Positions 25,455 to 56,360 of a stretch of 63,217 nucleotides of DNA are shown here, one piece after another. Origin of the DNA: an uncultured Bacteroidales bacterium (GTDB lineage: Bacteria; Bacteroidota; Bacteroidia; Bacteroidales; B18-G4); contig CAZDWF010000003.1 of NCBI GenBank assembly GCA_964508895.1, positions 1 through 63,217 of the forward strand, written 5' to 3'. How positions within the stretch are numbered: the stretch's first letter is position 1; each line of letters begins with the position of its first letter. The notes beneath the pieces are model-generated. The model worked only from the letters and a program-made list of their open reading frames with translations. It was not told where the DNA came from and did not search any database. A program made the translations under genes and the position numbers.

Positions 25455-25457
25455 ATC

Positions 25458-30495: not shown

Positions 30496-30503
30496 TAATT
30501 TTG
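30496..30503 (+). promoter_or_regulatory. Bacteroidota -7 promoter box TAATTTTG
   Basis: Matches TAnnTTTG, 30 nt before the ATG at 30533. Confidence 0.4.
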
Positions 30504-30532
30504 TATTTACAGATAGCTTTAAAATTCATAAG

Positions 30533-31438: not shown

Positions 31439-31486
31439 AAAAATCGGACATTAACCTCGTTACACCTTCCGCGTCACGATTTAAAA

Positions 31487-35594: not shown

Positions 35595-36434
35595 ATGACA
35601 ACTGAAGAAATCATTGCCGAAGCACTAAGAGAAGACCTTGGTGATGGTGATCACACTTCTATGAGCACTATCCCTGGAACAGCTATTGGTAAAGCTCAGC
35701 TTTTGATAAAAGAAGAAGGAATCCTGGCAGGTGTTAAGCTTGCTCGTATGGTATTCGAAAAAGTAGATAAAGAAATACATTTTAATGAATTTATTCATGA
35801 TGGAGAAACTGTAGAACCTGGCAATGTAGCCTTTATTGTTGAAGGAAAGATTATTTCCCTATTATCCTCCGAAAGGCTTGCACTTAATTTCATGCAAAGA
35901 ATGAGTGGCATTGCATCATATACTCATAAACTTGTTGACTTGATTAAAGATACTAATGCTAAGATACTGGACACCAGGAAAACTACTCCTTTATTAAGAT
36001 ATCTGGAAAAAGAAGCCGTAAAAATTGGTGGAGGCTATAACCACAGAATGGGATTATATGATATGATAATGATAAAAGATAATCATGTTGATTTTGCAGG
36101 AGGAATAAGAGATGCTATTGCAGCAACGCAGGAATATCTAGAAAAAAAAGATAAAAAACTGAAGATAGAAATTGAGGTTAGAAATATTAATGAAATTGAT
36201 GCAGTATTAGAAACAGGTGGTGTCGACCGTATAATGTTCGATAACTTCACGCCCGACATGACAAGAATTGCTGTCAGAATGATAGATGGCAAATATGAAA
36301 CAGAATCATCAGGAGGGATAACTGAAGAAAACATTAGAGCATTTGCAGAGGCAGGAGTTGATTTTATCTCTGTAGGTGCATTAACACATCAGATCAAAAG
36401 TCTTGACATGAGCCTAAAAGCCCTCGGTGAATGA
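35595..36434 (+). CDS. nadC: Nicotinate-nucleotide pyrophosphorylase (carboxylating)
   Basis: QPRTase motifs LDTRKTTP, GGGYNHR, IMIKDNH. Confidence 0.9.
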   Translation: MTTEEIIAEALREDLGDGDHTSMSTIPGTAIGKAQLLIKEEGILAGVKLARMVFEKVDKEIHFNEFIHDGETVEPGNVAFIVEGKIISLLSSERLALNFMQRMSGIASYTHKLVDLIKDTNAKILDTRKTTPLLRYLEKEAVKIGGGYNHRMGLYDMIMIKDNHVDFAGGIRDAIAATQEYLEKKDKKLKIEIEVRNINEIDAVLETGGVDRIMFDNFTPDMTRIAVRMIDGKYETESSGGITEENIRAFAEAGVDFISVGALTHQIKSLDMSLKALGE

Positions 36435-37375
36435 TTGCAAAAAAATCTAAATACAAGGGTTTGATGAAGATCAGGTTGGTAAGGAAGATGAAGGTGGTCG
36501 GTGAGAGATTAGCCCGGAAAATAATTCTGCCTGGCTTCGATGGAATACCACTTTACGATGTAATCTTATTCTTTTTCAAAGGAATTAGAAAAAGTTCCCT
36601 GATCTCAAGGGCCAATAGCCTTTCTTTTACGTTTATGCTTGCAATATTCCCTGCTATCATTTTCTTTTTCACATTAATCCCATATATCCCTGTTGATAAT
36701 CTTCAGGAAACAATACTTCAAAGTCTTTCGAATATAATGCCTGAAAATGCATTTAAAACTGTTGAAAGTACAATCCGTGATCTTATAAGTCTGCACCGTG
36801 GGGGATTATTATCACTGGGATTTTTAATGGCAATATACTTCTCTTCCAACGGAGTGATGGGTATAATGAAAGCCTTCAACCGAACGTCTCATACCATAGA
36901 AACAAGGTCTACACTAATGCTCATTGTAATATCAATTGTTCTGGTAGCCATTATTGTAAGCATTTTGATCATTGCAACTTCATTATTAATTTTTGCTTCA
37001 TACCTTATTAAGCAATATGCCAGTGAAGGCTTAAGTGATGATGGTATTACGCCTATATTAATAATTATTGGAAAATGGGTGTTTACATATTTGTTGATCT
37101 TTATCGTTATATCATTCATCTATTATCTTGCTCCAGCAGGAAAGAGACATTTCAAATTTATTTCTGCCGGATCAACTCTGGCAACTATACTATCACTTCT
37201 TTTTATGATGGGCTTTAATTATTACATCGATAATTTCGCACAATACAATAAATTATATGGATCACTTGGAACACTAATAATACTCATGATCTGGATCAAC
37301 CTCAATGCAATAGCACTATTGATAGGGTTTGAGTTGAATGCCAGCATATTGGATGCAAAGAGGAAAGGCGCATAA
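36431..37375 (+). CDS. YihY/BrkB family membrane protein
   Basis: Polytopic protein with LSFTFMLAIFPAIIFFFTLIPYIP and C-terminal LIGFELNA motifs; 4-nt overlap with nadC. Confidence 0.75.
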   Translation: MIAKKSKYKGLMKIRLVRKMKVVGERLARKIILPGFDGIPLYDVILFFFKGIRKSSLISRANSLSFTFMLAIFPAIIFFFTLIPYIPVDNLQETILQSLSNIMPENAFKTVESTIRDLISLHRGGLLSLGFLMAIYFSSNGVMGIMKAFNRTSHTIETRSTLMLIVISIVLVAIIVSILIIATSLLIFASYLIKQYASEGLSDDGITPILIIIGKWVFTYLLIFIVISFIYYLAPAGKRHFKFISAGSTLATILSLLFMMGFNYYIDNFAQYNKLYGSLGTLIILMIWINLNAIALLIGFELNASILDAKRKGA

Positions 37376-37451: not shown

Positions 37452-38333
37452 ATGAAAACCATTTTCCCGAATCTTAATCCTGAAACAATAAAATGGTTTC
37501 TTGAATTCGGTATCCCCAGAAAAAAAATAACTGCACTACAACTCAGAGCAAGTGGATTTAATGAACTTCCTTCTCCTGTATTTTTTCTTTCAACAGGAAG
37601 ATGTGGAACAAAATGGTTTTCAGAACTATTAAAAAAAGGTGATAAGATAAAGGTTTTACATAATCCATATCCCAATCTATTTATTCAGGGAAAAAGAGTT
37701 TATGAAGAATATTGCAGGGATAATGAGAATAGCAGATCTGACTTGATCAAAGAGATATATTTTGCAGGAAGAGAAGAATACCTCAGGTATGCTTATAAAA
37801 CAGAAAAGAGGTTAATTGAAACCAATAATGGTATCACCTTCTTTGCTCCTATACTTGCTGAGTTATTCCCTACTGCATTATTCGTTCATTTATACCGACA
37901 TCCTGGAGAATTTATCAGATCAGGAATCAGAAGAGATTATTTCACTGACAGTGTTGAAGATATCAGGAGAATTTCCCCCCCGGAGGGCTCTCCGGAATAT
38001 AGCAAATGGAAATCATCAGACCAGATTGAAAAAACTTCCTGGTTATGGAATGAAACTAACAGATTTATAGAAAGCTTTAAAGCAAATCATGGACAGCACA
38101 GAACATTTGATTTAAACTTCAATGAATTAAAAGAAGAGAGCGTTCATCAGTTGATCGATTTTCTTGGAATTTCAGGAATTTGTGAACGCAAAGTAAGTAA
38201 CATGCTGTCGAAGAAAATTAATGTTCAGAAATCAGGTAGTTTTAACAAATATGAAAGCTGGAAAGATAAGGATAAAGAGAAGGTAAGGAGAATTTGCGGG
38301 GAATTGGCTGAGAGGTATGGGTATGAGTTGTAA
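37452..38333 (+). CDS. Sulfotransferase family protein
   Basis: PAPS 5'-phosphosulfate-binding loop-like TGRCGTKWF and 3'-phosphate-binding-like LYRHPGEFIRSGIRR. Confidence 0.55.
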   Translation: MKTIFPNLNPETIKWFLEFGIPRKKITALQLRASGFNELPSPVFFLSTGRCGTKWFSELLKKGDKIKVLHNPYPNLFIQGKRVYEEYCRDNENSRSDLIKEIYFAGREEYLRYAYKTEKRLIETNNGITFFAPILAELFPTALFVHLYRHPGEFIRSGIRRDYFTDSVEDIRRISPPEGSPEYSKWKSSDQIEKTSWLWNETNRFIESFKANHGQHRTFDLNFNELKEESVHQLIDFLGISGICERKVSNMLSKKINVQKSGSFNKYESWKDKDKEKVRRICGELAERYGYEL

Positions 38334-38382
38334 TATGTGCACAATTATTAATAAGCAATACCAGGAATAAATTTGTATAATA

Positions 38383-39576
38383 GTGAATCAGAAATTGAGT
38401 GTTACAGAATATCAGAATATATTTCATAAACTCGGAAACTGGATAAAACAAAATGATTATAAGAGTTTTGATGTTTGCGATATAAGCTCCACAAAACTTT
38501 ATTTAACATTAATTGATATTCATAAAAGAAATAAATATGGTAAGTATTTATACTTCCCTTTTGAACAGATAAATAAAAAAGCCCCCTCAACTCTGCGCAA
38601 AATTGCGAACTCAAAAAAGAAGGAATATGCACAAGCATATGCAGTGATATCAAGAGCTTATTCTAATGCATACAAAAAGAATAAAGATAAAGGCTATTTA
38701 GATAATGCAACCCAAGCTATTGAAAAACTATTACCATTAAGGTCTGAAGGATTTGAAAATTATTGCTGGGGACAACCATATGATTGGTATTCAAGAAAGC
38801 TCATACCTTTTAATACTCCACGCGCAACAGTTACATCCCAGGTTGGTTCTGCCCTCCTTGATATATATGAGATCAATAATGATGAAAGATTGCTCAATAT
38901 TGCTAATAGCACGGGGAATTTCTTTATCGAAGACATGGAGATATACAAAGATACTGATGGACATATTTGTTTTCCGTATACTGCAATTGACAATTATAAA
39001 ATCCATAATGCAAGTATGCTTGCTGCAGCATTTTTATACAGGCTTTCCATTTTGACTTCAAATAAAAATTTCCTGGATTATTCCATAAATGCATCTGAAT
39101 TTACCATAAAACATCAAAGGGAAGATGGAGCCTGGCACTATATGGCTCCTCCACACAAAACATTAGGAAAAATAGATAATTATCATACAGGATTTGTTCT
39201 TGAAGCTTTTCTTGATATTAAGAAAGCAGATCCAGACAATTTTCCCTACGATGAAGAGCTGAAAAAAGGCATGAACTTCTATTTACAAAACTTCTTTATT
39301 GATGAGACAATACCCAAAATGACTCCAAAGAAAACCTATCCTCTAGATATACAAAGCTGTGCTCAAAGTATTATCACTCTCGAAGAAGCAAAAATTGTTA
39401 TGGATCTAAATACTAATATTCCAAAAAAGACAACACAATGGACTATTGAGAATTTCTGGGATGATAATAATGATTACTTTTATTATAGGAAATATAAGAG
39501 TGGAAAAATAGATGAAAGTGCTTACATAAGATGGTCTGAATCATGGATGTTAAGAGCATTATCTTACATGATCTAA
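38383..39576 (+). CDS. Hypothetical protein, possibly alpha/alpha-barrel enzyme of glycan metabolism
   Basis: CWGQPYDWYSR ... TSQVGSALLDIYE ... EDGAWHY ... YHTGFVLEAF pattern recalls alpha/alpha toroid proteins found in polysaccharide loci. No confident family call. Confidence 0.3.
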   Translation: MNQKLSVTEYQNIFHKLGNWIKQNDYKSFDVCDISSTKLYLTLIDIHKRNKYGKYLYFPFEQINKKAPSTLRKIANSKKKEYAQAYAVISRAYSNAYKKNKDKGYLDNATQAIEKLLPLRSEGFENYCWGQPYDWYSRKLIPFNTPRATVTSQVGSALLDIYEINNDERLLNIANSTGNFFIEDMEIYKDTDGHICFPYTAIDNYKIHNASMLAAAFLYRLSILTSNKNFLDYSINASEFTIKHQREDGAWHYMAPPHKTLGKIDNYHTGFVLEAFLDIKKADPDNFPYDEELKKGMNFYLQNFFIDETIPKMTPKKTYPLDIQSCAQSIITLEEAKIVMDLNTNIPKKTTQWTIENFWDDNNDYFYYRKYKSGKIDESAYIRWSESWMLRALSYMI

Positions 39577-39583
39577 TCAAATA

Positions 39584-40432
39584 ATGAAAAGAATAATATT
39601 ATCGGTAAATAGCATATATAATAGAATGAGAATTACTAAAAAAGTAAATTCTCTTAAAATCATTGAGTCGTACGTTGATGATGATAAAGCCTTTATTAAA
39701 CTTGATAACGGTCTGCTATTCTATGGTTTAAAAAGTCGGAAAAAAGAGTTCAAATACTATAAACACCTAATCTCAAAAGAAATAAAAAGAATTCTTCCAT
39801 TTGATTGTTACAACCTGGCACTAAATATCATTATTCGATATTATGAAGGCGGCTTGAAATTTGGTGGTCCTGCCAAAGAATTATATTACAAAGTCAAAGA
39901 AGGAGATACTGTTGCTGAAATGGGTGCTTACCTTGGGCATTACACAATGTATCTTGCCTTGAAAGCTGGCAAATCAGGGAAAGTAATTGCCATTGAACCT
40001 ATGCCGGATAACCTGGAATTCCTTAAAAACAATATAAAGCAAAACTCCTTTGAAAATGTCACCATTATACCAAAAGGAGTATGGGATAAAACAGATGAAC
40101 TTGAAATCTTCCAGGAGAAAGACGATCATCAGTCTGCCAGTCTCGTAATAAAAAACGATAACAAGAACAAGATCAAAATCCCTGTTGATTCACTGGATAA
40201 TATTCTCACTCCGTTGGTTGATGACAAAATCGATTTTATGATAATTCAATTAAATGGTGTTGAACTAAAGGCTTTGCAGGGATTAGAAAAGTATAAACCT
40301 AAAAATATTGCAATAGCTGCAAGATATGACAATATTCAAAAGGAGATTGTAAAGCTATTGGATCAAAGAGGTTATAGAACAATTGTAGAATCCGGGAAGT
40401 ATATCTTTGCAGAATTAATAGAAGATGAATAA
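39584..40432 (+). CDS. FkbM family methyltransferase
   Basis: SAM-binding region VAEMGAYLGHYTMYLA ... VIAIEPMPDNLEFLKNNI. Confidence 0.6.
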   Translation: MKRIILSVNSIYNRMRITKKVNSLKIIESYVDDDKAFIKLDNGLLFYGLKSRKKEFKYYKHLISKEIKRILPFDCYNLALNIIIRYYEGGLKFGGPAKELYYKVKEGDTVAEMGAYLGHYTMYLALKAGKSGKVIAIEPMPDNLEFLKNNIKQNSFENVTIIPKGVWDKTDELEIFQEKDDHQSASLVIKNDNKNKIKIPVDSLDNILTPLVDDKIDFMIIQLNGVELKALQGLEKYKPKNIAIAARYDNIQKEIVKLLDQRGYRTIVESGKYIFAELIEDE

Positions 40433-41150
40433 TAAATTGATCAAAATATCTGTGATTGGCAATTCTGTTGCTATCAGGGTGAGGCCTCCGCAAAAACATC
40501 CCGATAACCGGAATTATACTCAATTATTAGAGGAGATTCTTAATAAGGATTTTTCAAAGCAATTAATATTGATAAATAGTATTGCTAATGGTGGTGATAC
40601 AGTTAATGATATGCTATCGAGTCTTGATCATTATGTAAGAAGCTTTCCTGATATATATATCCTCAACATTGGGGTTGTAGATGCTTCTACCAGGGAAATA
40701 CCAAAATGGTTCTTTAATATAATAAACAACAAGAAAGAAGGCTATTGCAGGAACTTCCTCAAACTTCTCTACAATGGGTTTATTAAAAAACACAGAAGAA
40801 AGCTTGTTTTATTATGTGGTAAAAAAACATGGATAAGTAAATTAAGATTTCGAAAAGCTTATACTACATTGGTATCTAATCTTATTAAAGAAACTAATGC
40901 ACGCGTTATTACCTTATCAATCAATAGAGGAAACGCCAGAATTGAGGAAGAAGTTCCTGGTTCTAATAAGAATTACAAACTATATTCCGAGATTATTAAA
41001 GAAGTATCAGAGGAGTTTGGTGCAATCTATATTTTATTAGATGACATAGAAAGTGATGCTCATTACCCTGATGGAGTTCATTTTTCAAAAGAAGGCCATA
41101 AAATTGTGGCTGATAAATTAGCAAGAGTTATTAAACCATTGCTCAAATAA
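40425..41150 (+). CDS. SGNH/GDSL-like hydrolase or acyl-esterase
   Basis: Block I ISVIGNSVA, block III NGGDT, block V DGVHFSKEGH; 8-nt overlap with the upstream gene. Confidence 0.55.
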   Translation: MNNKLIKISVIGNSVAIRVRPPQKHPDNRNYTQLLEEILNKDFSKQLILINSIANGGDTVNDMLSSLDHYVRSFPDIYILNIGVVDASTREIPKWFFNIINNKKEGYCRNFLKLLYNGFIKKHRRKLVLLCGKKTWISKLRFRKAYTTLVSNLIKETNARVITLSINRGNARIEEEVPGSNKNYKLYSEIIKEVSEEFGAIYILLDDIESDAHYPDGVHFSKEGHKIVADKLARVIKPLLK

Positions 41151-41166
41151 TTAAACCATCTCTTTA

Positions 41167-42549
41167 ATGGAAGGTGTACTTAATAAAAATAAAATCAATT
41201 ATATTTTATATCACTTATCATTAATAGTTGATTTAGAGCATCTTAAAAAATATAAGATGCTAAATTTTGTTAATGGAAGTACTTCCAAACAGGCCTCTGA
41301 TCCAGGTATTTATTTTAAGCTCTCAGATAGCAATCTCGATTCAAGTAAAATAAAATCTATAGATGACATTCCCGTGTTATTTCCTTTATCTGACATAAAA
41401 GATGTGTATTATTTTGATAATGGCAATTTATATTTCAGAGATGACCTGTTAAAATCTGCATTTTACTTTTTATCAGGATTTCAGGAATATAATTCAGTGG
41501 AAAAGGATGAGCTGGGAAGGTTTCCATATATGACTTCCATTCAGAACAAACTAAATATAACTCATATTCCTGTTGTAAACTATTACTTCGATTGGATAAA
41601 GAAAGGTATAGAAGAATTTTGCTCAATCCATGAAATTAAGCTTAAACCAAAAACAAGGCTTGAACCTTTCACATTCTTTCTAACACATGATATTGACAGG
41701 ATAAAATTCTATTCATTTAACAATTTGTTGCAAAGGTTAAAAGACATTCTTGGATTAACCCAAAACAGGCAAAGCACAAAAAAATCAATAAAACAGTTTT
41801 TCAGTATATTATTTCATCTGTTAAGGATATGCAACAAGCAGGATCCATGGTGGAATTTTAATTATTTATTGAAACTTGAAGAAAAATATAATGTTAAGTC
41901 AACATTTTTTTTCCTGCATAAAGATATGAAGCACAAAGATTCTTATTATTCTTTTAATGATCATAAAATTAGAACCCTAATACATGAATTATTAACTAAA
42001 AAATTCGATGTAGGAATTCATGGAACTATAAGGTCTGCATCAGATTTGGATAATATGATATGGCAGAAAGATGAAATGGAGAAAATAATTACAGACAAGG
42101 TTTACGGTATAAGGCAACATAATCTTGTTTATATGAATCCGGAAACATCATTTATTCAACAAGATGCTGGGTTTAAGTATGATAGCAGTCTTGGCTTTGC
42201 AGAACATGAAGGATTCAGAAATTCATACTGTATGCCTTTTAAATTATATAATTTTCAGGAAGATAAGGCGTTTGATTGCTGGGAAATTCCTCTAAACGTA
42301 ATGGATGTAACATTATTTCACTACAGGAAACTTGATTTAACAAAAGCAAAAAATAATATTCTGGGGCTTATTTCCGAAATTATGAAGTTCAATGGAATTT
42401 TCACTCTTCTGTGGCATAATAATCACTTTAATGAAGATTTAATTCCAGGCATTACAGACTTTTATGAGACACTCATTAATGATATAATGAATATGGGTCC
42501 TGTTTCATCAACAGGGAAAGAAATTATTTCAAAAATTAATAACTCTTAA
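41167..42549 (+). CDS. Polysaccharide deacetylase-like protein with N-terminal extra domain
   Basis: FFLTHDIDR, GIHGT and GIRQH ... YDSSLGF motifs resemble divergent NodB/CE4-like deacetylases. Confidence 0.45.
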   Translation: MEGVLNKNKINYILYHLSLIVDLEHLKKYKMLNFVNGSTSKQASDPGIYFKLSDSNLDSSKIKSIDDIPVLFPLSDIKDVYYFDNGNLYFRDDLLKSAFYFLSGFQEYNSVEKDELGRFPYMTSIQNKLNITHIPVVNYYFDWIKKGIEEFCSIHEIKLKPKTRLEPFTFFLTHDIDRIKFYSFNNLLQRLKDILGLTQNRQSTKKSIKQFFSILFHLLRICNKQDPWWNFNYLLKLEEKYNVKSTFFFLHKDMKHKDSYYSFNDHKIRTLIHELLTKKFDVGIHGTIRSASDLDNMIWQKDEMEKIITDKVYGIRQHNLVYMNPETSFIQQDAGFKYDSSLGFAEHEGFRNSYCMPFKLYNFQEDKAFDCWEIPLNVMDVTLFHYRKLDLTKAKNNILGLISEIMKFNGIFTLLWHNNHFNEDLIPGITDFYETLINDIMNMGPVSSTGKEIISKINNS

Positions 42550-42562
42550 ATTTAGCTTTAGC

Positions 42563-44074
42563 TTGCTGGATAAGTTAAGACATACAATAAGGCAAACAGC
42601 CATTTATGGAATAGGTAAATTGGGCACCAAACTTATTGGGCTAATATTATTACCTCTTTACACAGATTATTTAACAACATCCCAATATGGTATCCTGTCA
42701 TTGCTGGAAGTAACATCTCAGATTATGATCGGAATACTTGGATTCCGGCTTTCCAATGCTATGATGAGATGGATGGCTGGAGAAAAAGATCCTGAAAAGA
42801 AAAAGACTATTGTATTTACAACCTATCTCTCAACTATTGCTATAGTTCTAATTTCCTGGACATTATTAATCCCGTTTACTGATCAGTTTTCATTATGGTA
42901 TTTTGAATCAAATGAGTTTTCAACCTATTTTCTGATCCTATTCTTGTCAGTTGGTTTTGAGATCCTGAACCATATTACTTTTGACCTTATCAGGATGGCC
43001 GAAAAGGCTGTATTCTTTATTATTATCGTATCTGTAAAGCTTGCTGCAATACTTGGACTTAATATTTACTTTATTATTGCTTTAGAACTTGGTGTTAAGG
43101 GAATTATCCTTAGTATGTTAATAGGAAATCTACTAATGCTGGTGATTTCCATACCATTTATTCTTAAAAGAATTAACCTTCATTATGACAGGATAATATT
43201 CGGTCAGATGTTCCGTTTTGGATTTCCAATAATATTTTCAGGACTATCGGTAATGATATTATCTTTTGCAGACCGATTCATCCTGAAACAATTAAAAGAT
43301 CTTTCAGAAGTGGGGATATATACTACAGGATATAAAATTGCTGGCGTAATTAATGTATTATTATTGCAATCCTTTCAAACTGGCTTTCTCCCTATTGCTT
43401 ATAAAATGTTTGACAGGAAAGATGCGAGCCGTTTCTTTGCAAAAGTGCTCACCTACCTCACCTATGTGTTAATGATTGCAGTATTGGTATTATCATTATT
43501 TTCAAAGGAATTTATAATGCTCTTTATTTCAAATAAAAGCTATTGGAGTGCCTATACTATAGTTCCACTAATAAGCCTGACTTTTCTGATTAAAGGATGG
43601 CAATATGTTTTTGTTCTGGGTTTACACTATTCAAAGAACACTAAGTATATTGCCTACATTGTTTTATTGGCTGTTGGAGTAAATATTGGATTGAACTATT
43701 TATTGATACCTTACTGGGGAATTTATGGTGCAGCTGTAACTTCAATATTCTCAACATTGATAAATGTAATACTGATCTATCGCTACTCTCAAAAATTCTA
43801 TGCAATAAAATATGAATTTTCAAAGCTCATAAAGATTGTAATTATGGGTTTGGCAATCCTGGCTGTATATTATTTTATTAATGACTTAAATATTTACATT
43901 CGCATTCCTGTTAAAGTTATTCTGATAATCTCTTTCCCAATCGGTTTATATTTTATGAATTTCTACGATAAAATTGAAATTGAACGATTCAAGGATTTCC
44001 GGGATACCTGGAGACATCCTGGAAAATGGAAAGAGAATGTTAGCAGACTTAGAAAGTCTAAACTTTCTGATTAG
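42563..44074 (+). CDS. Oligosaccharide flippase (Wzx / MOP superfamily)
   Basis: 503 aa, about 12-14 TM helices, typical polysaccharide biosynthesis protein N-terminus (GKLGTKLIGLILLPLYT); TTG start. Confidence 0.7.
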   Translation: MLDKLRHTIRQTAIYGIGKLGTKLIGLILLPLYTDYLTTSQYGILSLLEVTSQIMIGILGFRLSNAMMRWMAGEKDPEKKKTIVFTTYLSTIAIVLISWTLLIPFTDQFSLWYFESNEFSTYFLILFLSVGFEILNHITFDLIRMAEKAVFFIIIVSVKLAAILGLNIYFIIALELGVKGIILSMLIGNLLMLVISIPFILKRINLHYDRIIFGQMFRFGFPIIFSGLSVMILSFADRFILKQLKDLSEVGIYTTGYKIAGVINVLLLQSFQTGFLPIAYKMFDRKDASRFFAKVLTYLTYVLMIAVLVLSLFSKEFIMLFISNKSYWSAYTIVPLISLTFLIKGWQYVFVLGLHYSKNTKYIAYIVLLAVGVNIGLNYLLIPYWGIYGAAVTSIFSTLINVILIYRYSQKFYAIKYEFSKLIKIVIMGLAILAVYYFINDLNIYIRIPVKVILIISFPIGLYFMNFYDKIEIERFKDFRDTWRHPGKWKENVSRLRKSKLSD

Positions 44075-44131
44075 TACTACATATAAACAAAGTTGAAAAT
44101 GCATTCACTTTGAGGTTATTGTGAAAAGTTA

Positions 44132-44139
44132 TACATTTG
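44132..44139 (+). promoter_or_regulatory. Bacteroidota -7 promoter box TACATTTG
   Basis: Matches TAnnTTTG, 76 nt before the ATG at 44215. Confidence 0.3.
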
Positions 44140-44214
44140 GGGTTGCTTTAAAAGGTCATAGCTTGCGTTAGAAAGATGATGCTATGATTTACACTTAAAT
44201 GCTAAGAATACTCA

Positions 44215-45216
44215 ATGACAGATAAACTAAAAAATATATGTTTTATAGGAGCAGGGAATATTGGCACTTCCCTGGGTAACAGACTTGCATTCAGGAAGAA
44301 CCTGAATATTCAACTTCTCACAATAGAGAAAGATGTTGTTAAGCCTATTAACAAATACCACATAAATCAGAAGTATTTTCCAAAACTTAAGCTTAATAAA
44401 AACTTAAAAGCCACATTAGACCCTCAGGTTCTTACACAAGCACAGGTTATTTTTATAGCTATACCTTCAGGAATAACTGTTAATTATCTTAAAGAGAATT
44501 ATAATTTTATAGAGCAGGATGCTATCCTTGTTAATCTAGCAAAAGGCTTCGCTCCTGATGGAAGAACCATCAATGAATGTCTTATCGACACCTTTCCAAA
44601 TCCTGTATGTTCTTTAAAAGGGCCAACATTCGCAAGAGATATAGTAAACTCCGCTCCCACTGCATTTACTTTCGCTGCAAAAGACAAATCATTATTTCCT
44701 GTATTCAGGTCACTTTTTGACAAAACAGAAATATACCTTGATTTTACTACGGATGTAATTGGAATAGAAATACTAAGTATCCTGAAAAATATTTATGCCA
44801 TAGTAATTGGAATTGTTGATGCTCACTTTAATTCTCCAAACCTGAGGTTTTTAATATTAACCAAGGCATTTAATGAGATGCACAGTATTTTATTATTATT
44901 GAAAGGTGAGAGTGAAACTCTGTTCCACTATTGTGGTTTCGGGGATTTTAGTCTTACAGCATTGAATGATTTAAGCAGAAACAGAACCTTAGGTTTATTG
45001 ATTGGAAAAGGTTTCTTTATTGATGACATTTCAGATAAAGTGGTACTGGAAGGAAAAAATGCTGTAAATGTTATTGTTGACAAGCTTCATAAATTAAATA
45101 AAGACGAATCAGACTTCCCTATTTTATGCGAATTATTTAAAGTATTTAATAATAATTACAACGTATCAAATTTTGTCAATCGTCTTCTTAAGAGAATAGA
45201 TTCCAGGATAGATTAA
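44215..45216 (+). CDS. GpsA-like NAD(P)H-dependent glycerol-3-phosphate dehydrogenase family protein
   Basis: Rossmann motif FIGAGNIGTSLG, LAKGF and KGPTFARDI segments parallel GpsA motifs. Confidence 0.6.
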   Translation: MTDKLKNICFIGAGNIGTSLGNRLAFRKNLNIQLLTIEKDVVKPINKYHINQKYFPKLKLNKNLKATLDPQVLTQAQVIFIAIPSGITVNYLKENYNFIEQDAILVNLAKGFAPDGRTINECLIDTFPNPVCSLKGPTFARDIVNSAPTAFTFAAKDKSLFPVFRSLFDKTEIYLDFTTDVIGIEILSILKNIYAIVIGIVDAHFNSPNLRFLILTKAFNEMHSILLLLKGESETLFHYCGFGDFSLTALNDLSRNRTLGLLIGKGFFIDDISDKVVLEGKNAVNVIVDKLHKLNKDESDFPILCELFKVFNNNYNVSNFVNRLLKRIDSRID

Positions 45217-45223
45217 TCAATTA

Positions 45224-45880
45224 TTGAAAAAACATTTATTGAATATGCAATTTGATAGCAATAATATACTTGTTCTGGCACCTCATACAGATGATGGTGA
45301 ATTAGGCTGCGGCGGCAGTATAGCAAAATATCTTGAAGAAGGTAAAAATGTATATTACGCTGCATTTTCAACAGCTAAAGAATCATTACCAGAAGAATTA
45401 CCCGATAACACTCTGGAAAAGGAAGTTAAGGAAGCAACTAAAAGGTTGGGCATTCCTGAAGAAAACCTTATCATCTTTGGTTTCCAGGTAAGAAAGCTCA
45501 ATTATGAACGTCAGAATGTTTTAGAAGAACTCGTTAAACTAAAGAAAGATATCTTACCAGGAATGGTATTCATGCCATCCCCTAATGATCTGCATCAGGA
45601 TCATTTTACTATTGCCACTGAATGCATGAGGGCATTTAAGGAAACAAGTATACTTGCCTATGAATTACCATGGAATAATATAACTTTTAACACTCAGGCT
45701 TTTGTTACACTGGAAGAAAGACATGTAGAGAAAAAGGTTTATGCTCTTGATGCATATAATTCACAAAAGAAAAGATCTTATCTAAACAAAGAATTCATTT
45801 ACAGCTGGGCAAGAACAAGAGGTGTACAAATCAAAACTAATTTTGCTGAAACATTTGAAGTTATTAGATGGATTATCTAA
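45224..45880 (+). CDS. PIG-L/LmbE family de-N-acetylase
   Basis: APHTDDGELGCGG and HQDH zinc-site motifs; TTG start. Confidence 0.75.
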   Translation: MKKHLLNMQFDSNNILVLAPHTDDGELGCGGSIAKYLEEGKNVYYAAFSTAKESLPEELPDNTLEKEVKEATKRLGIPEENLIIFGFQVRKLNYERQNVLEELVKLKKDILPGMVFMPSPNDLHQDHFTIATECMRAFKETSILAYELPWNNITFNTQAFVTLEERHVEKKVYALDAYNSQKKRSYLNKEFIYSWARTRGVQIKTNFAETFEVIRWII

Positions 45881-45887
45881 TGTAGCT

Positions 45888-46886
45888 ATGTCAAATAAAA
45901 GCTTACAGGATTTTAACAGATTACGCAAAAAGGAGCATTATAAAGATGAATCCCAGGAAAACTACCTTCTTGATCTCAATAAAGTTTTACAGGAGAAAGA
46001 AATTGAAAAGTATTTAGACCTGGAAGAAGAGTATCCAAGTATTTTTGTATTTGGACTGCCAAGATCAGGTACCACATTTATGACTCAGCTCATTGCGCAT
46101 TCTTTTAATATAGGATACATTAATAATTTCATGGCCCGTTTCTGGCTGGCCCCTGTCACAGGAATAAAACTTTCCAATATTATTTACGGGCAAGAAAGCA
46201 ATGCATATTTCGATTCTGATTATGCATCCACGAAAAGCATGACGGATATCCATGAATTTGGTTATTTCTGGAGAAACTGGCTAAAGAAAGACAGCATTCC
46301 GGAAATTATACGGTCAAAAGAGAATGAAGAAATAATTGACTGGGCAGGATTAAAAAAATGCATTCTAAATATCCATAATGCATTTGGAAAAGCCTGGATA
46401 TGCAAGAATATTTTTGGGGCTTATCACATTGAAAAGCTTTCTCAATTATTAAAGAAGTCATTGTTTGTATATATTGAAAGGGATCCTTTGGATAACGCTA
46501 TTTCAATATTGGATGCACGCAAAAAATTCTATTCGGATATAAATTTATGGTGGAGCACAGTCCCTTATGAGTATGAAGACCTTAAAGATCTTCCAGTTAT
46601 GGAACAGATCACCGGCCAGGTACATTATTTAAGAGAGTTCTATGCAAATGAACTTTCAAAACTACCTGATAACCGTTATATGATCATTGATTACAAAGAT
46701 GTAACTACTTCTCCTTACAATACCGTTGAAAAAATCAAAGATAAACTGGATCAGCTAACATCTTATGATAATGAACTCCTTGGCAATGCAAGAATGATTT
46801 CCAGTGAAAATGTTATTTTCAGAACCTACAAAAACAGAGATTCAGAGAAACATATATTTAATATCTTATTAAACAGGTTTAGGTAG
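45888..46886 (+). CDS. Sulfotransferase family protein
   Basis: PAPS-binding loop GLPRSGTTF and YIERDPLDNAIS. I prefer the in-frame ATG at 45888 (8 nt after the PIG-L stop) over the ORF-track start at 45822, which overlaps the PIG-L gene by 59 nt. Confidence 0.65.
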   Translation: MSNKSLQDFNRLRKKEHYKDESQENYLLDLNKVLQEKEIEKYLDLEEEYPSIFVFGLPRSGTTFMTQLIAHSFNIGYINNFMARFWLAPVTGIKLSNIIYGQESNAYFDSDYASTKSMTDIHEFGYFWRNWLKKDSIPEIIRSKENEEIIDWAGLKKCILNIHNAFGKAWICKNIFGAYHIEKLSQLLKKSLFVYIERDPLDNAISILDARKKFYSDINLWWSTVPYEYEDLKDLPVMEQITGQVHYLREFYANELSKLPDNRYMIIDYKDVTTSPYNTVEKIKDKLDQLTSYDNELLGNARMISSENVIFRTYKNRDSEKHIFNILLNRFR

Positions 46887-46899
46887 TATAACCAGTAAG

Positions 46900-47892
46900 T
46901 TAATGCTTCAGAATTTTTTGTTTCCCGATTAAAGTTCCTGATTGATTATAAAGAAGTATAAAATATATTCCAGCTTTGAAGTTTGAAATATTAATTCTGG
47001 AAATATTTGTATAAGTGGCAAGCCTGTTTCCTGAAATAGTATAAAATTCAACCTCCTTAGCATCAGCATTATTAATGTATATTATATCTCTTGCAGGATT
47101 GGGATAAACTGAGATTTGGTTCTCTTTCTCCTTTTCCAGGATTGAAGTAAGCTGCATATTGTATAATTGCCAAACTTCTATTGAATCAAGAGCTCCGGCA
47201 AAAACAATCAGCTCATCAATATCTCCGTTAAATGCACCTTGAACCTGTGAGAAGAAATGATGTGCGCCTATACTAACCCAATCAATGTTTGTATGAAAAT
47301 TGCCAACCTGAATGAATGGTTCAATAATAACCATCTCTGTATCCAGGAACATTCTCATCATATCATCAGTAGTATCACAGGTTATAACATAATGATGCCA
47401 TTCACCATAATCAAAAGATGGATATCTGATTTGAATTGGATAAGGGCTGGGAGGATAATAACCTCTTAAAGAAAACTCAATGAACCCTGTTTGGTCTTCA
47501 GCAGTTAATGCTATTGTTGATCCTGCAGATTGTGAAGCATCATTACATCTTTGTTCAAAGACCATATTATTGCCATTTCCTCCACCCGGACCATCCATTT
47601 TGGCCCATACGGATAAAGTAAATTCCATTACAGTAATAATAGCTGAATCATTATTAAGCTGTATCCTGCTTGAAATACCATCAAAATTATAAGCATTATT
47701 TGGATATCCCAACATGTCGTTCGTTAATGTTGCACCCTCGGATATACCATGATACTCATTTCCGCTAATATCATTCGCATTATTATGAAATGGATAGTAT
47801 GCTATTATACTATCAAATTGAAACTGAGCAATACTAAAGCTATTAAAGAGGATCAACAATAAGCTCAATAAGAGTAAGTTCTTGATTTTCAT
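46900..47892 (-). CDS. LamG/concanavalin-like domain secreted protein with T9SS type A CTD
   Basis: NAYNFDG ... FTLSVWAKMDG LamG-type pattern; CTD ISVYPNPARDIIYI ... GIYFILLYN. Confidence 0.65.
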   Translation of the reverse strand: MKIKNLLLLSLLLILFNSFSIAQFQFDSIIAYYPFHNNANDISGNEYHGISEGATLTNDMLGYPNNAYNFDGISSRIQLNNDSAIITVMEFTLSVWAKMDGPGGGNGNNMVFEQRCNDASQSAGSTIALTAEDQTGFIEFSLRGYYPPSPYPIQIRYPSFDYGEWHHYVITCDTTDDMMRMFLDTEMVIIEPFIQVGNFHTNIDWVSIGAHHFFSQVQGAFNGDIDELIVFAGALDSIEVWQLYNMQLTSILEKEKENQISVYPNPARDIIYINNADAKEVEFYTISGNRLATYTNISRINISNFKAGIYFILLYNQSGTLIGKQKILKH

Positions 47893-48019
47893 AATTATTT
47901 AAATTAAAAATGGTTTATTAACTTTAAAGTTACAAATTATTTAAATGATATTAAATATTAATTAAAATCCTTCAGGGACTAAAAAAATTCTCAACGAATA
48001 TTCGTATTTTTGATACTCA

Positions 48020-48715
48020 ATGAAAGAAAGCAAAATAGTTGCCATACATCAACCCAATTTTTTGCCTTGGCTTGGGTATTTTCATAAGATTATGGAAAGT
48101 GATGTTTTTGTCTTACTTGATGACGTTGAATATACTAAGAATGGTTTCATTAACAGAAATAAGATTAAAACTCCACAGGGGGAACAATGGATCACTGTTC
48201 CTGTAAATTATTCAGGGAAGTCAAAACAAAAAATAAATGAAGTAGATATTTTTAATCCTGAAAAATTTAAAAAGAAGATTCTGGCTACAATTGAAATGAA
48301 TTATAAGAAAGCTGATTATTTTAATAATTATTTTGAAGAACTTGCTGAAGTCTTTTATAATAGCAATCAAAAACTTTCAAAACTAAATATTCTATTAATT
48401 AAATGGATTTGTGAAAAACTTGACATAGAATCACTAATCTATACCTCATCTGAGTTAGATATTATAGAGGATGACCCATCAGCAAAATTAATAGCTATTT
48501 GTAAAGAGTTTAATGGAAACCAGTATCTCTCTGGTTTTGGTGGGGATAATTATCAGGAGCACCAAAAATTCGAAGAAGCAGGAATTGAATTAATCCAATC
48601 AAAATTTAAACAAACTGAATACTCTCAAAAATGGGGAGAGTTTATTCCTTATTTGTCAGTGATTGACGGACTACTGAATTTAGGGGATAAGCTAAAAGAG
48701 GTAATCTCCAAATAG
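48020..48715 (+). CDS. WbqC family protein
   Basis: N-terminal AIHQPNFLPWLGYFHKI motif. Confidence 0.65.
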   Translation: MKESKIVAIHQPNFLPWLGYFHKIMESDVFVLLDDVEYTKNGFINRNKIKTPQGEQWITVPVNYSGKSKQKINEVDIFNPEKFKKKILATIEMNYKKADYFNNYFEELAEVFYNSNQKLSKLNILLIKWICEKLDIESLIYTSSELDIIEDDPSAKLIAICKEFNGNQYLSGFGGDNYQEHQKFEEAGIELIQSKFKQTEYSQKWGEFIPYLSVIDGLLNLGDKLKEVISK

Positions 48716-48726
48716 AAATAGTTCAT

Positions 48727-50475
48727 TTATCTTACAAGAATCAAAGTTCCTGATTTTCTGAAATCTGCACTTATTCCTAATTCATCCTTTGCTTTAAAGT
48801 CGATAATATATACGTATGAACCTGTAGGACATTGCTTTCCATTCATTTCACCATCCCATAAATCAGAAATACTGAAAGACTCGAAAACTTTTGTACCTCT
48901 TTTATTATATATCAGAATATGAAATGAGGAAATACTATTTCCCTTTGGCTCGAACTCATCATTAAGTCCATCTCCATTTGGTGAAAATGCATTAGGTATA
49001 TACAAGCTTGATTTGTATTCACTAATATATACTGTATCAGACAGTGCTACACCAATTTTTTCAACATCAACCCAATATTTACCTCCCTTTGTTACCACAA
49101 AAGTTTGATTATGAGATCCATCTTGCCAAGTATATGTATCAAATCCTGACCCTGCATCAAGAACAATCTTATCTCCAAGAATAAGATTAGTATCAGGACC
49201 AAGAATACTCTCAGGTGGAAACATAATACCTACAAATATGCTATCATATCCATAACCACATTCATTTTCAACCCTAACATGATATATCCCGGTGGTGCTT
49301 ACTGAATAAAATTGGCCAAAACTATGATCCTGCCACAAATAACTTAAATATCCTGAACCAGCATCTAAAATCAATGTATCGTTGTACCAAATTGTAGTGT
49401 CATTTCCCAGAAATACCTGTGGTAAATAATCAAATGATACATAAATAGAATCACTTGAAAAACACATTCCATCTGTAATTATAACCCAATATAATCCAGG
49501 ACTAGTAACTATATAGAATGAGTTGGTTGTACTATCTTGCCATATATATGACACATTAGGCAGTCCAGGATTAAGTATCAAGCTGGCATTCTCACAAATT
49601 GTAGTATCCTTACCAAGATTTACCTGAGGAATATTATTAATTTGAACATAAACTGAATCCATGCAATATTCATTTCCTAATGTAACTTCAACCCAATATA
49701 TTCCTTGGTGGGTTACTATCAAACTATCATTTGTGCTTCCATCCTGCCATAAATAAGTATCATAATTATTCCCCGGACTTAAAACAACAGATGAACCACT
49801 ACATATTGTTGTATCATTTCCCAAAGAGCAGTTCAGTGAACCACCTTGACTGTCGTAGACAATAGTAAGTTTTGGATGGAGATCAGGAATAATATAATCA
49901 CTGGAAGCAAAATCTAAAGCCCTATATTTTTCTTCTGTATTTAGTTTAAGCATGAATCCAAAACTAGAATCAGGATTCAGTATCATATCCTGTACTAATT
50001 CCGTAACATCAATATTTGGATATGACTGATCTATGCTATCGCTTATAGGAAGTATCCCGGGATTATCGGTTGAATAAGGTGGTTGATTATTCCAGGTAAG
50101 AACATGTTCATCCCAATCCTCAAGGATCCTATACAATGAAGATTCATTATCACCATATTGACCTGGAGGATTATTCATCAAATCATCAGCAAAATATAAA
50201 CTTAATGTGGCTTGAAGAATTATATCATCGATTGAAAACATTGAAAGATCAAATTGGATAAAGGACCTGGAAAAGTTCGGATTACCATTCATTGTCCAAG
50301 CATGGGCTGTCAAATCCTCATAATCACCAAGATTGTTATTTGGATTCATAAATTGAATCTTGGAATCTTTGCCAATCTCCGAACCTGGTTGTAATATTAA
50401 AGTATCTTGCGAATGAGAATAACTAATAAAAAATATTAGGATAATAGCAATGGAAAAATTCTTCATATTGACCAT
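48727..50475 (-). CDS. DNRLRE-like domain secreted protein with four about 66-aa repeat modules and T9SS type B (gliding-associated) C-terminal domain
   Basis: N-terminal module shared with the ORFs at 30533 and 50588. Four LG.DTT.C ... Y.WQDGS ... G.YWV modules. C-terminus YIPNAFSPNGDGLNDEF ... WDG. Confidence 0.65.
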   Translation of the reverse strand: MVNMKNFSIAIILIFFISYSHSQDTLILQPGSEIGKDSKIQFMNPNNNLGDYEDLTAHAWTMNGNPNFSRSFIQFDLSMFSIDDIILQATLSLYFADDLMNNPPGQYGDNESSLYRILEDWDEHVLTWNNQPPYSTDNPGILPISDSIDQSYPNIDVTELVQDMILNPDSSFGFMLKLNTEEKYRALDFASSDYIIPDLHPKLTIVYDSQGGSLNCSLGNDTTICSGSSVVLSPGNNYDTYLWQDGSTNDSLIVTHQGIYWVEVTLGNEYCMDSVYVQINNIPQVNLGKDTTICENASLILNPGLPNVSYIWQDSTTNSFYIVTSPGLYWVIITDGMCFSSDSIYVSFDYLPQVFLGNDTTIWYNDTLILDAGSGYLSYLWQDHSFGQFYSVSTTGIYHVRVENECGYGYDSIFVGIMFPPESILGPDTNLILGDKIVLDAGSGFDTYTWQDGSHNQTFVVTKGGKYWVDVEKIGVALSDTVYISEYKSSLYIPNAFSPNGDGLNDEFEPKGNSISSFHILIYNKRGTKVFESFSISDLWDGEMNGKQCPTGSYVYIIDFKAKDELGISADFRKSGTLILVR

Positions 50476-50587
50476 TTTTATTAGTAAGCACTATAAAATT
50501 ATATAATACTGTTTCCAATAGCAAGATTTATAAATGAAATTTAGCTATTCTTACTTGTAAAAGTTCTTTCTAAACCTGATAACTAGA

Positions 50588-51934: not shown

Positions 51935-51977
51935 ACTTATAAACTTTAAATTTGGAGTTTATAAATATATTAAAAAA

Positions 51978-55756: not shown

Positions 55757-55782
55757 ATCGATAGTTTTGGTATTTTACATCG

Positions 55783-56333: not shown

Positions 56334-56360
56334 AACTCTGTTATCTTAATTTTGGGTGTG

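Follow-up and report, generated by a model that had tools for sequence, protein, structure and literature searches.

A sulfotransferase-rich, predicted glycan-tailoring island beside yfhO in an uncultured Bacteroidales bacterium

We investigated an island of putative glycan-tailoring genes in an uncultured Bacteroidales bacterium, carried on a contig window of 63,217 bp with a guanine-plus-cytosine (GC) content of 35.1% ("the window" denotes this whole stretch throughout). Genes for cargo of type IX secretion (T9SS) are numerous on the contig, which places the host in the Bacteroidota, and its closest relatives are uncultured Bacteroidales metagenome-assembled genomes. The island opens with nine open reading frames (ORFs) at 37452–46886, all in one direction and separated by gaps of −8 to 49 bp, apart from a single gap of 140 bp in front of the seventh, and it ends with a WbqC-family gene (48020–48715). 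This layout is the one described in the original prediction, which had been made from the sequence without database searches. Pfam and NCBIfam models were run against the main non-overlapping ORFs between 33.9 and 63.2 kb, plus most such ORFs elsewhere in the window, and the scans agreed with the predicted assignments: two sulfotransferases, an FkbM methyltransferase, an SGNH esterase, a deacetylase described as NodB-like and now placed as DUF7033/WbmS-like, a Wzx flippase, a GpsA-like dehydrogenase, a PIG-L de-N-acetylase and WbqC. Beyond the island, on the opposite strand, lie genes for a GT4 glycosyltransferase and a YfhO-family membrane protein. Related loci compared with the window are given L-numbers.

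NodH and Stf0 are the classic carbohydrate sulfotransferases. The first gene of the island (ST1; 37452–38333, plus strand) and the ninth (ST2; 45888–46886, plus strand) are both predicted to encode soluble sulfotransferases of the type that uses 3'-phosphoadenosine 5'-phosphosulfate (PAPS). Both scored above the Pfam cut-off of 27 bits for Sulfotransfer_3, ST1 with 37.9 bits (E = 3e-09) and ST2 with 65.3 bits (E = 1.2e-17), and ST2 also matched Sulfotransfer_1 (E = 3e-07). The start of ST2 is most likely ATG 45888 rather than GTG 45822, because its homologues measure 328–333 aa. Alignment of 21 ST1 homologues revealed an invariant 5'-phosphosulfate loop LSTGRxG (LSTGRCGTK in the window) together with invariant R149, P151 and S157. 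Among 37 aligned ST2 homologues, the loop LPRSGTT was found with G56, P58, R59, T62 and T63 invariant and S60 and G61 present in at least 90%, and R198, D202 and S206 were likewise invariant. By alignment, the conserved residues of both proteins correspond to the motifs with which PAPS-dependent enzymes bind the 5'-phosphosulfate and the 3'-phosphate. Single-sequence searches of the PDB with ST1, ST2 and WbqC gave nothing useful, and family profiles were needed for the sulfotransferases. With the ST1 profile, sulfotransferases were the only matches of any weight, the best being the CurM sulfotransferase (4gbm, E = 4e-07); the ST2 profile matched tyrosylprotein sulfotransferases (E = 7e-04 to 4e-03) plus an Stf-like protein. 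The matches to the two profiles comprised the CurM and OLS sulfotransferases, TPST1/2 and cytosolic SULTs, and other P-loop proteins appeared solely as ClpX and ORC, at E > 0.1. Pfam scores, motifs and PDB profiles all point to sulfotransferases and not to another P-loop family, so that ST1 and ST2 are, as judged from sequence, genuine members of the PAPS-sulfotransferase superfamily. The ST1 subfamily is small: of 1.84 billion cluster representatives, 186 matched at E ≤ 1e-30. ST2 is flanked by PIG-L and WbqC in five related loci (L001, L085, L086, L087 and L088).

The gene after ST1 (38383–39576, plus strand) encodes a 397-aa protein that the original prediction had described as alpha/alpha-barrel-like. 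An AlphaFold2 model built with a 48-sequence alignment has the twelve-helix toroid pattern of an (alpha/alpha)6 barrel (pLDDT 95.6, pTM 0.94), in agreement with that description, and neither a signal peptide nor a transmembrane segment was predicted, as expected of a cytoplasmic protein. When the model was compared with the PDB using Foldseek, the top 16 matches were cellobiose, glucose and related sugar 2-epimerases of the AGE superfamily, including GlcNAc 2-epimerase (E of about 1e-08, TM-score 0.57–0.63, identity 10–13%), followed by GH76 and GH88 hydrolases. In the family alignment, H268 is invariant and H208 occurs in at least 90% of members. A Pfam scan of 48 family members gave matches to C5-epim_C in 31 (best E = 7.7e-09) and to GH88 in 30; the window protein itself failed the C5-epim_C model (PF06662), with 15.6 bits where the cut-off is 23.3. 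Neither the 25 PDB profile matches at E ≤ 10 nor the listed Foldseek top 50 included a Glce structure. The (alpha/alpha)6 fold is generic, being common to GH88, GH76 and AGE enzymes. An assignment to C5-epimerases specifically is unproven, given the sub-threshold score and matches that extend equally to GH88, GH76, AGE, LanC and pectate lyase proteins. We consider "epimerase-like fold" a fair description and "C5-epimerase" not established, and predict a sugar epimerase- or isomerase-like enzyme whose modelled fold is closest to AGE-type sugar 2-epimerases. The family also occurs at 35–48% identity in contigs assigned to Archaea (L011, L027, L029, L030 and protein P0084; Thermoplasmatales, Heimdallarchaeota, Odinarchaeota, Methanomassiliicoccales and Thermococcus), of which L011 (48% identity, FkbM gene adjoining) could be a mis-binned bacterial contig.

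Four further plus-strand genes follow the barrel. The FkbM-family S-adenosylmethionine (SAM) methyltransferase (39584–40432) matched Methyltransf_21 (E = 6.7e-12) and TIGR01444 (78.3 bits, cut-off 37.7), and the SGNH/GDSL esterase or acyl-hydrolase (40425–41150) matched Lipase_GDSL_2 (E = 1.4e-11). Next comes a 460-aa DUF7033 plus WbmS-like sugar deacetylase related to VimE (41167–42549; Pfam DUF7033, E = 5e-17). Over residues 61–441 it matched the VimE model NF053580 (UDP-2,3-diacetamido-2,3-dideoxy-glucuronate deacetylase) with E = 1e-39 and 136.5 bits, short of the equivalog cut-off of 440 bits, and it is best classed from this score as a VimE homologue of the same architecture, not as an equivalog. 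The corresponding gene of L001 (5138–6531) is called as two pieces (311 aa and 86 aa), which may reflect a frameshift, a pseudogene or an assembly error. The last of the four encodes a Wzx-type flippase of the MOP superfamily for lipid-linked oligosaccharides (42563–44074; Polysacc_synt, E = 1.7e-14, and Polysacc_synt_3), with several hydrophobic segments; this gene adjoins yfhO in many relatives.

The 140-bp gap separates these genes from one for a GpsA-like NAD(P)H glycerol-3-phosphate dehydrogenase (44215–45216, plus strand), which carries both GpsA Pfam domains (E = 1e-28 and 2e-30) and reached 196 bits with its best NCBIfam model (cut-off 257). It lies between Wzx and PIG-L in L001, L085, L086 and L088; in L002 and L090 it is away from them or on the other strand. 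The PIG-L family de-N-acetylase (45224–45880, plus strand; Pfam PIG-L, E = 1.3e-17), with a probable start near 45245, is 73–80% identical to its counterparts in L085, L086 and L088. Its best NCBIfam match was BshB1, at 64.6 bits so far below the cut-off of 182.5 that the protein is not BshB. ST2 comes next, and the WbqC-family gene (plus strand; Pfam WbqC, E = 1e-74) directly follows the ST2 homologue in L085, L086, L087 and L088; a literature search on WbqC function gave nothing usable. No transmembrane segment or signal peptide was predicted in any of the tailoring enzymes, consistent with their use of cytoplasmic PAPS and SAM. A scan of the window for sigma-70 promoters and terminators did no better than on shuffled sequence, and the Bacteroidota promoter motif TTTG-N19-TAnnTTTG matched four times against 3.8 expected by chance. 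One match (44109–44139, plus strand) falls in the island's only large gap, 76 bp upstream of the GpsA-like start; it is a possible internal promoter for the genes that follow, its position being suggestive, not significant.

The GT4 gene (51978–53279; Glyco_transf_4, E = 4.8e-12, and Glyco_trans_1_4) and yfhO (53276–55756) overlap by 4 bp on the minus strand. Upstream of them, also on the minus strand, are a gene for a small DUF4834-like membrane protein of 82 aa (55783–56031), which has an N-terminal hydrophobic segment and shares its position with the DUF4834 gene of L002, L088 and L089, then rpmH for ribosomal protein L34 (56184–56333, read from the ORF translation) and, upstream of rpmH, a match to the Bacteroidota promoter motif (56361–56391). 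The absence of a glycosyltransferase claimed in the original prediction holds for 37452–48715; GT4 and YfhO stand 3.3 kb past WbqC, just outside that interval, and belong to the same locus in relatives, so that the claim reflects where the boundary was drawn. The YfhO-family protein is a polytopic membrane protein of 826 aa with about 11 hydrophobic segments (Pfam YfhO, 32.2 bits, cut-off 28.5). It is 54–67% identical to more than 100 Bacteroidales proteins, its homologues bear precomputed PF09586 matches, and by these comparisons it is more conserved than the tailoring genes. Its AlphaFold2 model (pLDDT 80) suggests, through weak matches, a GT-C fold: the top 11 Foldseek matches were all GT-C enzymes (PglB, STT3, AftD, EmbA/B), with the oligosaccharyltransferases PglB and STT3 best and other GT-C enzymes after them. 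A family profile found no relative in the PDB, and the GT-C matches come from the predicted structure alone. GT-C enzymes have a conserved acidic residue in the first external loop; in the YfhO family, D40 is shared by all 34 sequences compared, although the model has pLDDT below 50 around it. We regard YfhO as a candidate for the transferase of the flipped glycan.

To place these genes in context, we compared their neighborhoods across the related loci. The closest relative, L001, has a barrel protein 83% identical to that of the window and the order BrkB-ST1-...-ST2-(LamG cargo)-WbqC-(GT4), with the two CBM96 cargo genes of the window missing. Other loci bring the same genes together in other orders: YfhO-GT4-GT4-ST1-barrel-FkbM-SGNH-DUF7033-Wzx in the Bacteroidales locus L002; YfhO-Wzx-(GT4)-DUF7033-ST1-barrel-FkbM-SGNH, then WbpD-, WbpB- and WbpE-like genes, in Ekhidna lutea (L004, Cytophagales); YfhO-GT4-ST2-WbqC-(PIG-L)-DUF7033-GT4-ST-ST-Wzx in Gracilimonas (L087, Balneolaceae); and, in L088, which was found by starting from YfhO, rpmH-DUF4834-YfhO-GT4 facing WbqC-ST2-PIG-L-GpsA-Wzx-DUF7033-SGNH-ST1, which is most of the tailoring set. 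Among 24 distinct loci with at least 15 kb of sequence each and a barrel at least 35% identical (tier 1), ST1 was present in 20, FkbM in 21 (adjoining the barrel), DUF7033 in 20, GT4 in 16 and SGNH in 14. The predicted joint conservation of the genes is borne out by this comparison. Barrel homologues of about 30% identity occur without ST1, FkbM, SGNH or DUF7033 and stand beside Wzx in 18 of 28 loci and beside YfhO in 10 of 28; their loci also hold WecB-type epimerases, DegT aminotransferases and a 709-aa fused oxidoreductase. This last protein, a fusion of a zinc-type alcohol dehydrogenase with a GFO/IDH/MocA oxidoreductase, was seen in 43 loci with a distant barrel (e.g. L081, 7828–9957), usually accompanied by a WecB-type UDP-GlcNAc 2-epimerase, and is a conserved module for which we found no description. 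Ten distant Bacteroidales loci have PorP/SprF-family genes, for T9SS membrane proteins, no more than a few kb from their barrel-Wzx-YfhO core (e.g. L069, 15392–16420).

The comparison also divides the island. ST1-barrel-FkbM-SGNH-deacetylase-Wzx (cassette 1) occurs without ST2 and WbqC in L002, L003 and L004, and GpsA-PIG-L-ST2-WbqC (cassette 2) occurs without the barrel and FkbM in L085, L086 and L088. The gene orders thus resolve the single block of the original prediction into two cassettes that occur independently. Cassette genes are also carried by complete genomes, such as that of Ekhidna sp. (NZ_OZ243102.1). In L001 and L085 the locus is bracketed by the same genes as in the window, adh_short-DUF4783-nadC-BrkB at one end and GT4-YfhO-M20 peptidase at the other; the gene content between them differs in L085, and ST2 is 81% identical to that of the window in L001 and 58% in L085. 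GT4 follows YfhO in L002, L085, L087, L088, L089 and L090, and the order rpmH-DUF4834-YfhO-GT4 is the same in L088, L089 and L090. L089 has YfhO-GT4 without any cassette, and L090 has, of the cassette genes, only PIG-L and a distant GpsA. Shared flanks with differing content, together with L089 and L090, indicate by synteny that rpmH-DUF4834-YfhO-GT4 is the constant element and that the island occupies a variable slot beside it. A gene for a BrkB/YihY-family membrane protein (36431–37375, plus strand) is co-directional with ST1 and 76 bp upstream of it; a homologue is found next to the locus in L001 and L085, and likewise in two loci from Cryomorphaceae (L017 and L023, 38% identity), and it may be more than a mere flank.

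Three T9SS cargo genes on the minus strand are embedded in the locus: one with a LamG domain and a type A C-terminal sorting domain (46900–47892; Laminin_G_3, Por_Secre_tail), one with CBM96/DNRLRE and a type B sorting domain (48727–50475; Pfam) and one with CBM96, PKD and a type A sorting domain (50588–51934; Pfam). The LamG gene is kept in L001 at 71% identity and is probably a passenger in the variable slot; a homologue of the CBM96 genes, at 45% identity, lies between WbqC and GT4 in L085. The contig holds six cargo genes in all (27933–33844 and 46900–51934), three of them with CBM96/DNRLRE (30533–31438, 48727–50475 and 50588–51934) and one with a type B (CHU_C) sorting domain, and no PorP/SprF gene was found nearby among the scanned ORFs.

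Based on these observations, we give about an even chance to the reading that the island forms the variable part, for tailoring and export, of a larger glycosylation locus, at roughly 37452–56391, which is built around rpmH-DUF4834-YfhO-GT4 and serves a Wzx/YfhO-dependent pathway with a sulfated product. A short oligosaccharide, probably of N-acetylated amino or uronic sugars, would be assembled on polyprenyl phosphate at the cytoplasmic face by GT4 and an initiating transferase encoded elsewhere. Still in the cytoplasm, the enzymes of cassette 1 would tailor it by sulfation (ST1), epimerization or isomerization (barrel), O-methylation (FkbM), de-O-acylation (SGNH) and de-N-acetylation (VimE-like DUF7033 protein), and those of cassette 2 would de-N-acetylate it again (PIG-L), sulfate it again (ST2) and carry out a WbqC step; cassette 2 may also use glycerol-3-phosphate made by the GpsA-like enzyme. 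The finished lipid-linked glycan would be flipped by Wzx and transferred, unpolymerized, to a periplasmic acceptor by the YfhO GT-C enzyme, yielding a sulfated, methylated and partly de-N-acetylated glycan. The most likely acceptor would be Ser/Thr of envelope proteins, as in the general O-glycosylation system of Bacteroidota. The VimE-like deacetylase and the Wbp-type genes of relatives suggest N-acetylated amino-uronic sugars among the substrates. As the original prediction had stated for polymerase and chain-length regulator, no Wzy, Wzz, Wza or Wzc was found in the Pfam/NCBIfam scans of the window ORFs (33.9–63.2 kb) or in the listed loci, although a divergent Wzy can escape profiles; this fits an unpolymerized oligosaccharide. 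In Firmicutes, YfhO is a GT-C enzyme that uses lipid-linked sugars outside the membrane and transfers them to lipoteichoic acid (LTA; PMC5836110). A 2025 review lists the oligosaccharyltransferase (OTase), ligase and core-glycan flippase of Bacteroidota O-glycosylation as still unidentified (PMC12871550), and a preprint of July 2026 predicts that Bacteroidota YfhO is the O-OTase of this phylum-wide system (10.64898/2026.07.27.740950). That the locus encodes the complete, linked general protein O-glycosylation machinery (YfhO as OTase, GT4, Wzx and tailoring enzymes) of an environmental Bacteroidales clade, with counterparts in Cytophagales and Balneolaceae, is a possibility we hold tentatively and with more doubt than belief.

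Several observations weigh against this interpretation. Genes for PAPS synthesis (ATP sulfurylase, APS kinase) and for an initiating phosphoglycosyl transferase were found neither in the 63-kb contig nor in any inspected locus. YfhO-GT4 is on the strand opposite to the cassettes and converges with them, with the three T9SS cargo genes and WbqC in between, so that the two do not form one operon. YfhO was present in only 13 of the 24 tier-1 loci, and L089 shows that YfhO-GT4 can stand without a cassette. The Pfam YfhO match covers only residues 722–799, the last 80 or so of the protein, and the Foldseek matches to GT-C enzymes are weak (E = 1.6e-03 to 5e-02, TM-score 0.21–0.32). The GpsA-like gene may encode a pathway enzyme or may be, given its varying position, a housekeeping gpsA caught inside the operon. 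The OTase role that the 2026 preprint gives to YfhO is an in-silico prediction, from sequence analysis alone. Porphyromonas gingivalis O-glycosylates its proteins (PMC8729774) and, according to the same preprint, lacks YfhO, so that YfhO cannot be a universal OTase. The reported modifications of Bacteroidota O-glycans are methyl, acetyl, phosphate, amino and glycero groups, and sulfate is not among them (PMC12871550). We infer the substrates, the positions of sulfation and the acceptor alike.

Other explanations can be weighed against the same evidence. The original prediction saw a tailoring module. In this reading it would stand alone and decorate an O-antigen, capsule or exopolysaccharide whose backbone is encoded elsewhere, and YfhO-GT4 would be unrelated housekeeping genes next to which the cassettes had landed at a recombination hot spot. 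The opposite strands, the intervening cargo genes and the hypervariability of the slot beside YfhO-GT4, which holds unrelated genes in L089 and L090, are what such a module would predict; distant barrel homologues, moreover, lie in nucleotide-sugar clusters (with a WecB-type epimerase in 38 loci, DegT in 14 and a UDP-sugar dehydrogenase in 10), and sulfated capsules and exopolysaccharides with sulfotransferases in Wzx-type clusters are known from other bacteria (PMC8205485, PMC11641403). We nevertheless consider it rather unlikely. Relatives place GT4 and YfhO directly against the tailoring genes, and this linkage recurs in Bacteroidales, Cytophagales (Ekhidna) and Balneolaceae (Gracilimonas) in differing gene orders, which makes a single shared hot spot hard to invoke. 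The lack of Wzy, Wzz, Wza and Wzc in the window and the listed loci also counts against it, and the island has a Wzx of its own, which suggests export of a complete lipid-linked unit rather than decoration of the glycan of another pathway. The low GC content of the island could instead mark a recently acquired foreign element, a very improbable reading. As the original prediction had judged by eye, the island is AT-rich (32.0% GC against 36.0% outside 37452–55756, that is, 4 points lower; gene-wise Mann–Whitney p = 5e-5), and the gene content of the slot varies between relatives. Its codon usage, however, is not foreign: GC at third codon positions (GC3) is 0.282 against 0.298 (p = 0.11), and the shift sits in codon positions 1 and 2 and reflects the amino-acid composition of the proteins. 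No tRNA gene was found on the contig and no Rfam family in the window, none of the ORFs scanned with Pfam or NCBIfam encoded an integrase or transposase, and the same flanks bracket the locus in L001 and L085 with related ST2 genes between them. As GC3 does not deviate and the slot is one that relatives also use, recent horizontal transfer of the island is not indicated, and a foreign origin was rejected on these grounds.

Two narrower readings give the product another role, and we consider both improbable. The locus might make an anionic glycan or linking sugar that anchors T9SS cargo, in the manner of the Wbp/Vim pathway of P. gingivalis, the negative charge coming from sulfate. VimE, the glycosyltransferase VimF and Wbp genes are required for the cargo-linking sugar (PMC7468200), the DUF7033 deacetylase is closest to VimE in NCBIfam, and WbpB/D/E-like genes lie in the Ekhidna locus; in the window, L001, L002, L085 and L090 the locus has T9SS cargo genes inside it, and PorP/SprF genes lie near it in 10 distant relatives. 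Set against this are a VimE score of 136 against the 440-bit equivalog cut-off, the lack of a VimA-like aminoacyl transferase and of any WaaL- or PorU-related gene nearby, and the preprint's report that P. gingivalis, the model organism of cargo anchoring, is without YfhO (10.64898/2026.07.27.740950). Cargo genes are, besides, common contig-wide (6 of about 55), and within the window the locus is not significantly enriched in them (3/15 against 3/40 elsewhere; Fisher p = 0.33). Alternatively, cassette 2 and GT4 might make a small sulfated glycoside or glycolipid after the logic of mycothiol, bacillithiol and glycosylphosphatidylinositol (GPI), in which GT4 would add GlcNAc to, for example, glycerol-3-phosphate from GpsA, PIG-L would de-N-acetylate it, and WbqC and ST2 would modify the freed amine or hydroxyl. 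The MshA/MshB, BshA/BshB and PIG-A/PIG-L pathways are defined by a GT4 enzyme that acts before a PIG-L deacetylase, which speaks for such a scheme, as do the match of PIG-L to BshB1, its unusually high conservation and the tight, conserved GpsA-PIG-L-ST2-WbqC block (L001, L085, L086 and L088). The BshB1 score is nevertheless well under its cut-off, the GpsA-like gene may be a housekeeping one, as its separate placement in L002 and L090 suggests, no cysteine ligase or lipid-synthesis gene is present, and the block is always accompanied by Wzx and YfhO, for which a small molecule in the cytoplasm would have no use.

The proposed Wzx/YfhO-dependent pathway resembles several known systems in part. 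The LFG-type O-glycosylation loci of Bacteroidota share with it a Wzx, several GT-B glycosyltransferases, species-variable tailoring by methyltransferases, assembly on a lipid carrier and the lack of a polymerase. They have the order metG-wzx-variable glycosyltransferases-two conserved terminal glycosyltransferases, whereas the window has wzx and GT4 in another order, and no metG was found in it. As in the LFG system, for which YfhO is the predicted OTase, a YfhO-family protein above the Pfam threshold is present, and in the window its gene is linked to those for the flippase and the glycosyltransferases. Neither the barrel nor sulfotransferases, PIG-L or VimE-like deacetylases have been reported from LFG loci, nor is sulfate a known modification there (PMC12871550). 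In gut Bacteroides, yfhO lies beside sahH or mtnN-luxS, away from glycan genes, unlike in the window. The LTA-modifying system of Bacillus and Listeria (CsbB/GtlA of family GT2, GtcA and YfhO/GtlB; PMC5836110) likewise combines a cytoplasmic glycosyltransferase, a flippase and a YfhO GT-C protein whose lipid-linked donor is expected at the outer face. In the window, the partners are a GT4 enzyme and a Wzx of the class with 12 transmembrane segments instead of GT2 and the small GtcA, which suggests an oligosaccharide rather than a single sugar, and the host is Gram-negative and without LTA and adds extensive cytoplasmic tailoring. In the N-glycosylation locus of Halobacterium salinarum (PMC11980604), two sulfotransferase genes (Agl30/Agl31) are clustered with glycosyltransferases, a flippase and a GT-C oligosaccharyltransferase, and the product is a doubly sulfated short protein glycan with uronic and iduronic acid. 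That system differs in that Agl30 and Agl31 have an alkaline-phosphatase/sulfatase-like fold and are not Sulfotransfer_3 proteins, and in being archaeal and N-linked, with AglB and dolichol phosphate.

The Wbp/Vim pathway of P. gingivalis and Tannerella forsythia (VimE, VimA, VimF, WbpA/B/D/E; PMC7468200) shares with the window a VimE-type DUF7033/CE4-like deacetylase and an associated glycosyltransferase, and relatives of the Ekhidna type also bear Wbp-type genes for 2,3-diacetamido uronic acids. The window lacks VimA and its VimE score is below the cut-off; the Vim pathway, for its part, has no sulfotransferases or YfhO. PAPS-type sulfotransferases within a Wzx-type cluster are also found in the sulfated-polysaccharide clusters for synechan (xss, Synechocystis; PMC8205485) and for the capsular polysaccharide of Vibrio sp. 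KMM 8419 (PMC11641403), which encode Wzy and Wzc/Wza-type export for long polymers; none of these was found in the window, where a GT-C protein is linked instead. The original prediction had compared the island with animal heparan sulfate maturation by NDST, GLCE and O-sulfotransferases, which likewise brings together a de-N-acetylase, sulfotransferases and an (alpha/alpha)6 barrel. The combination does recur, with ST1 and DUF7033 each in 20 of the 24 tier-1 loci, and the C5-epimerase part of the analogy is not established, the window barrel being below the C5-epim_C threshold and nearer in fold to AGE-type 2-epimerases. The deacetylases, moreover, come from other families (PIG-L, DUF7033/CE4-like), there is no heparosan-type synthase, and the tailoring would be cytoplasmic and act on a lipid-linked oligosaccharide, not on a polymer in the Golgi lumen.

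Some other features of the window were recorded. Between the M20 dipeptidase gene and rpmH lies a gene for a 120-aa four-helix-bundle protein (56517–56879, minus strand; TIGR02436, GC 28.9%), of a family often found in 23S rRNA intervening sequences; L002, L088 and L089 have no gene at that spot. At 18442–21803, murB is followed by a second GT4 gene (19568–20683) and by a gene for a 375-aa protein without a Pfam match that resembles a GT-B glycosyltransferase. The same murB-GT4-376-aa trio is immediately upstream of rpmH-DUF4834-YfhO-GT4 in L089, where the 376-aa protein is 55% identical to that of the window; the trio may share a functional neighborhood with YfhO-GT4 and have been relocated 33 kb away in the window. 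A tyrosine-decarboxylase-type, pyridoxal-phosphate-dependent decarboxylase (623 aa) is encoded beside an amino-acid permease at 14993–18345 (minus strand), a pair that resembles decarboxylase/antiporter systems for acid resistance or amine production. An rnf-type cluster of six ORFs (22671–27742, minus strand) was read from the ORF layout and the original prediction rather than from a profile scan, and an RseC/MucC-family gene (33930–34349) lies 6 kb from it, with three T9SS cargo genes between.

The locus is best read as a Wzx/GT-C glycosylation locus of known type with a sulfation-rich tailoring set, in which yfhO is linked to a flippase and glycan genes in several orders. The enzyme that attaches the protein O-glycans of Bacteroidota has been sought for more than 15 years, and YfhO was proposed for this role in 2026 from sequence analysis alone. 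With yfhO contiguous with Wzx, GT4 and tailoring genes, this hypothesis becomes open to genetics in the cultured Ekhidna lutea DSM 19307, whose locus is at 169608–190780 of NZ_FZPD01000006.1. If the locus does encode a complete O-glycosylation pathway, its product would be a sulfated protein O-glycan, the first of its kind in bacteria, and the repeated occurrence of yfhO together with wzx, GT4 and tailoring genes would give the first evidence from genomic context for YfhO as the O-oligosaccharyltransferase of Bacteroidota. The predicted chemistry, sulfate esters that are possibly on de-N-acetylated or uronic sugars, has not yet been reported for Bacteroidota envelope glycans. The analysis also defines three uncharacterized enzyme families, namely the ST1 subfamily, the ST2 subfamily and the cytoplasmic (alpha/alpha)6 barrel of bacteria and archaea. 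Sulfated surface glycans would alter surface charge, recognition by phages and lectins, and sulfur cycling in sediment and marine Bacteroidota.

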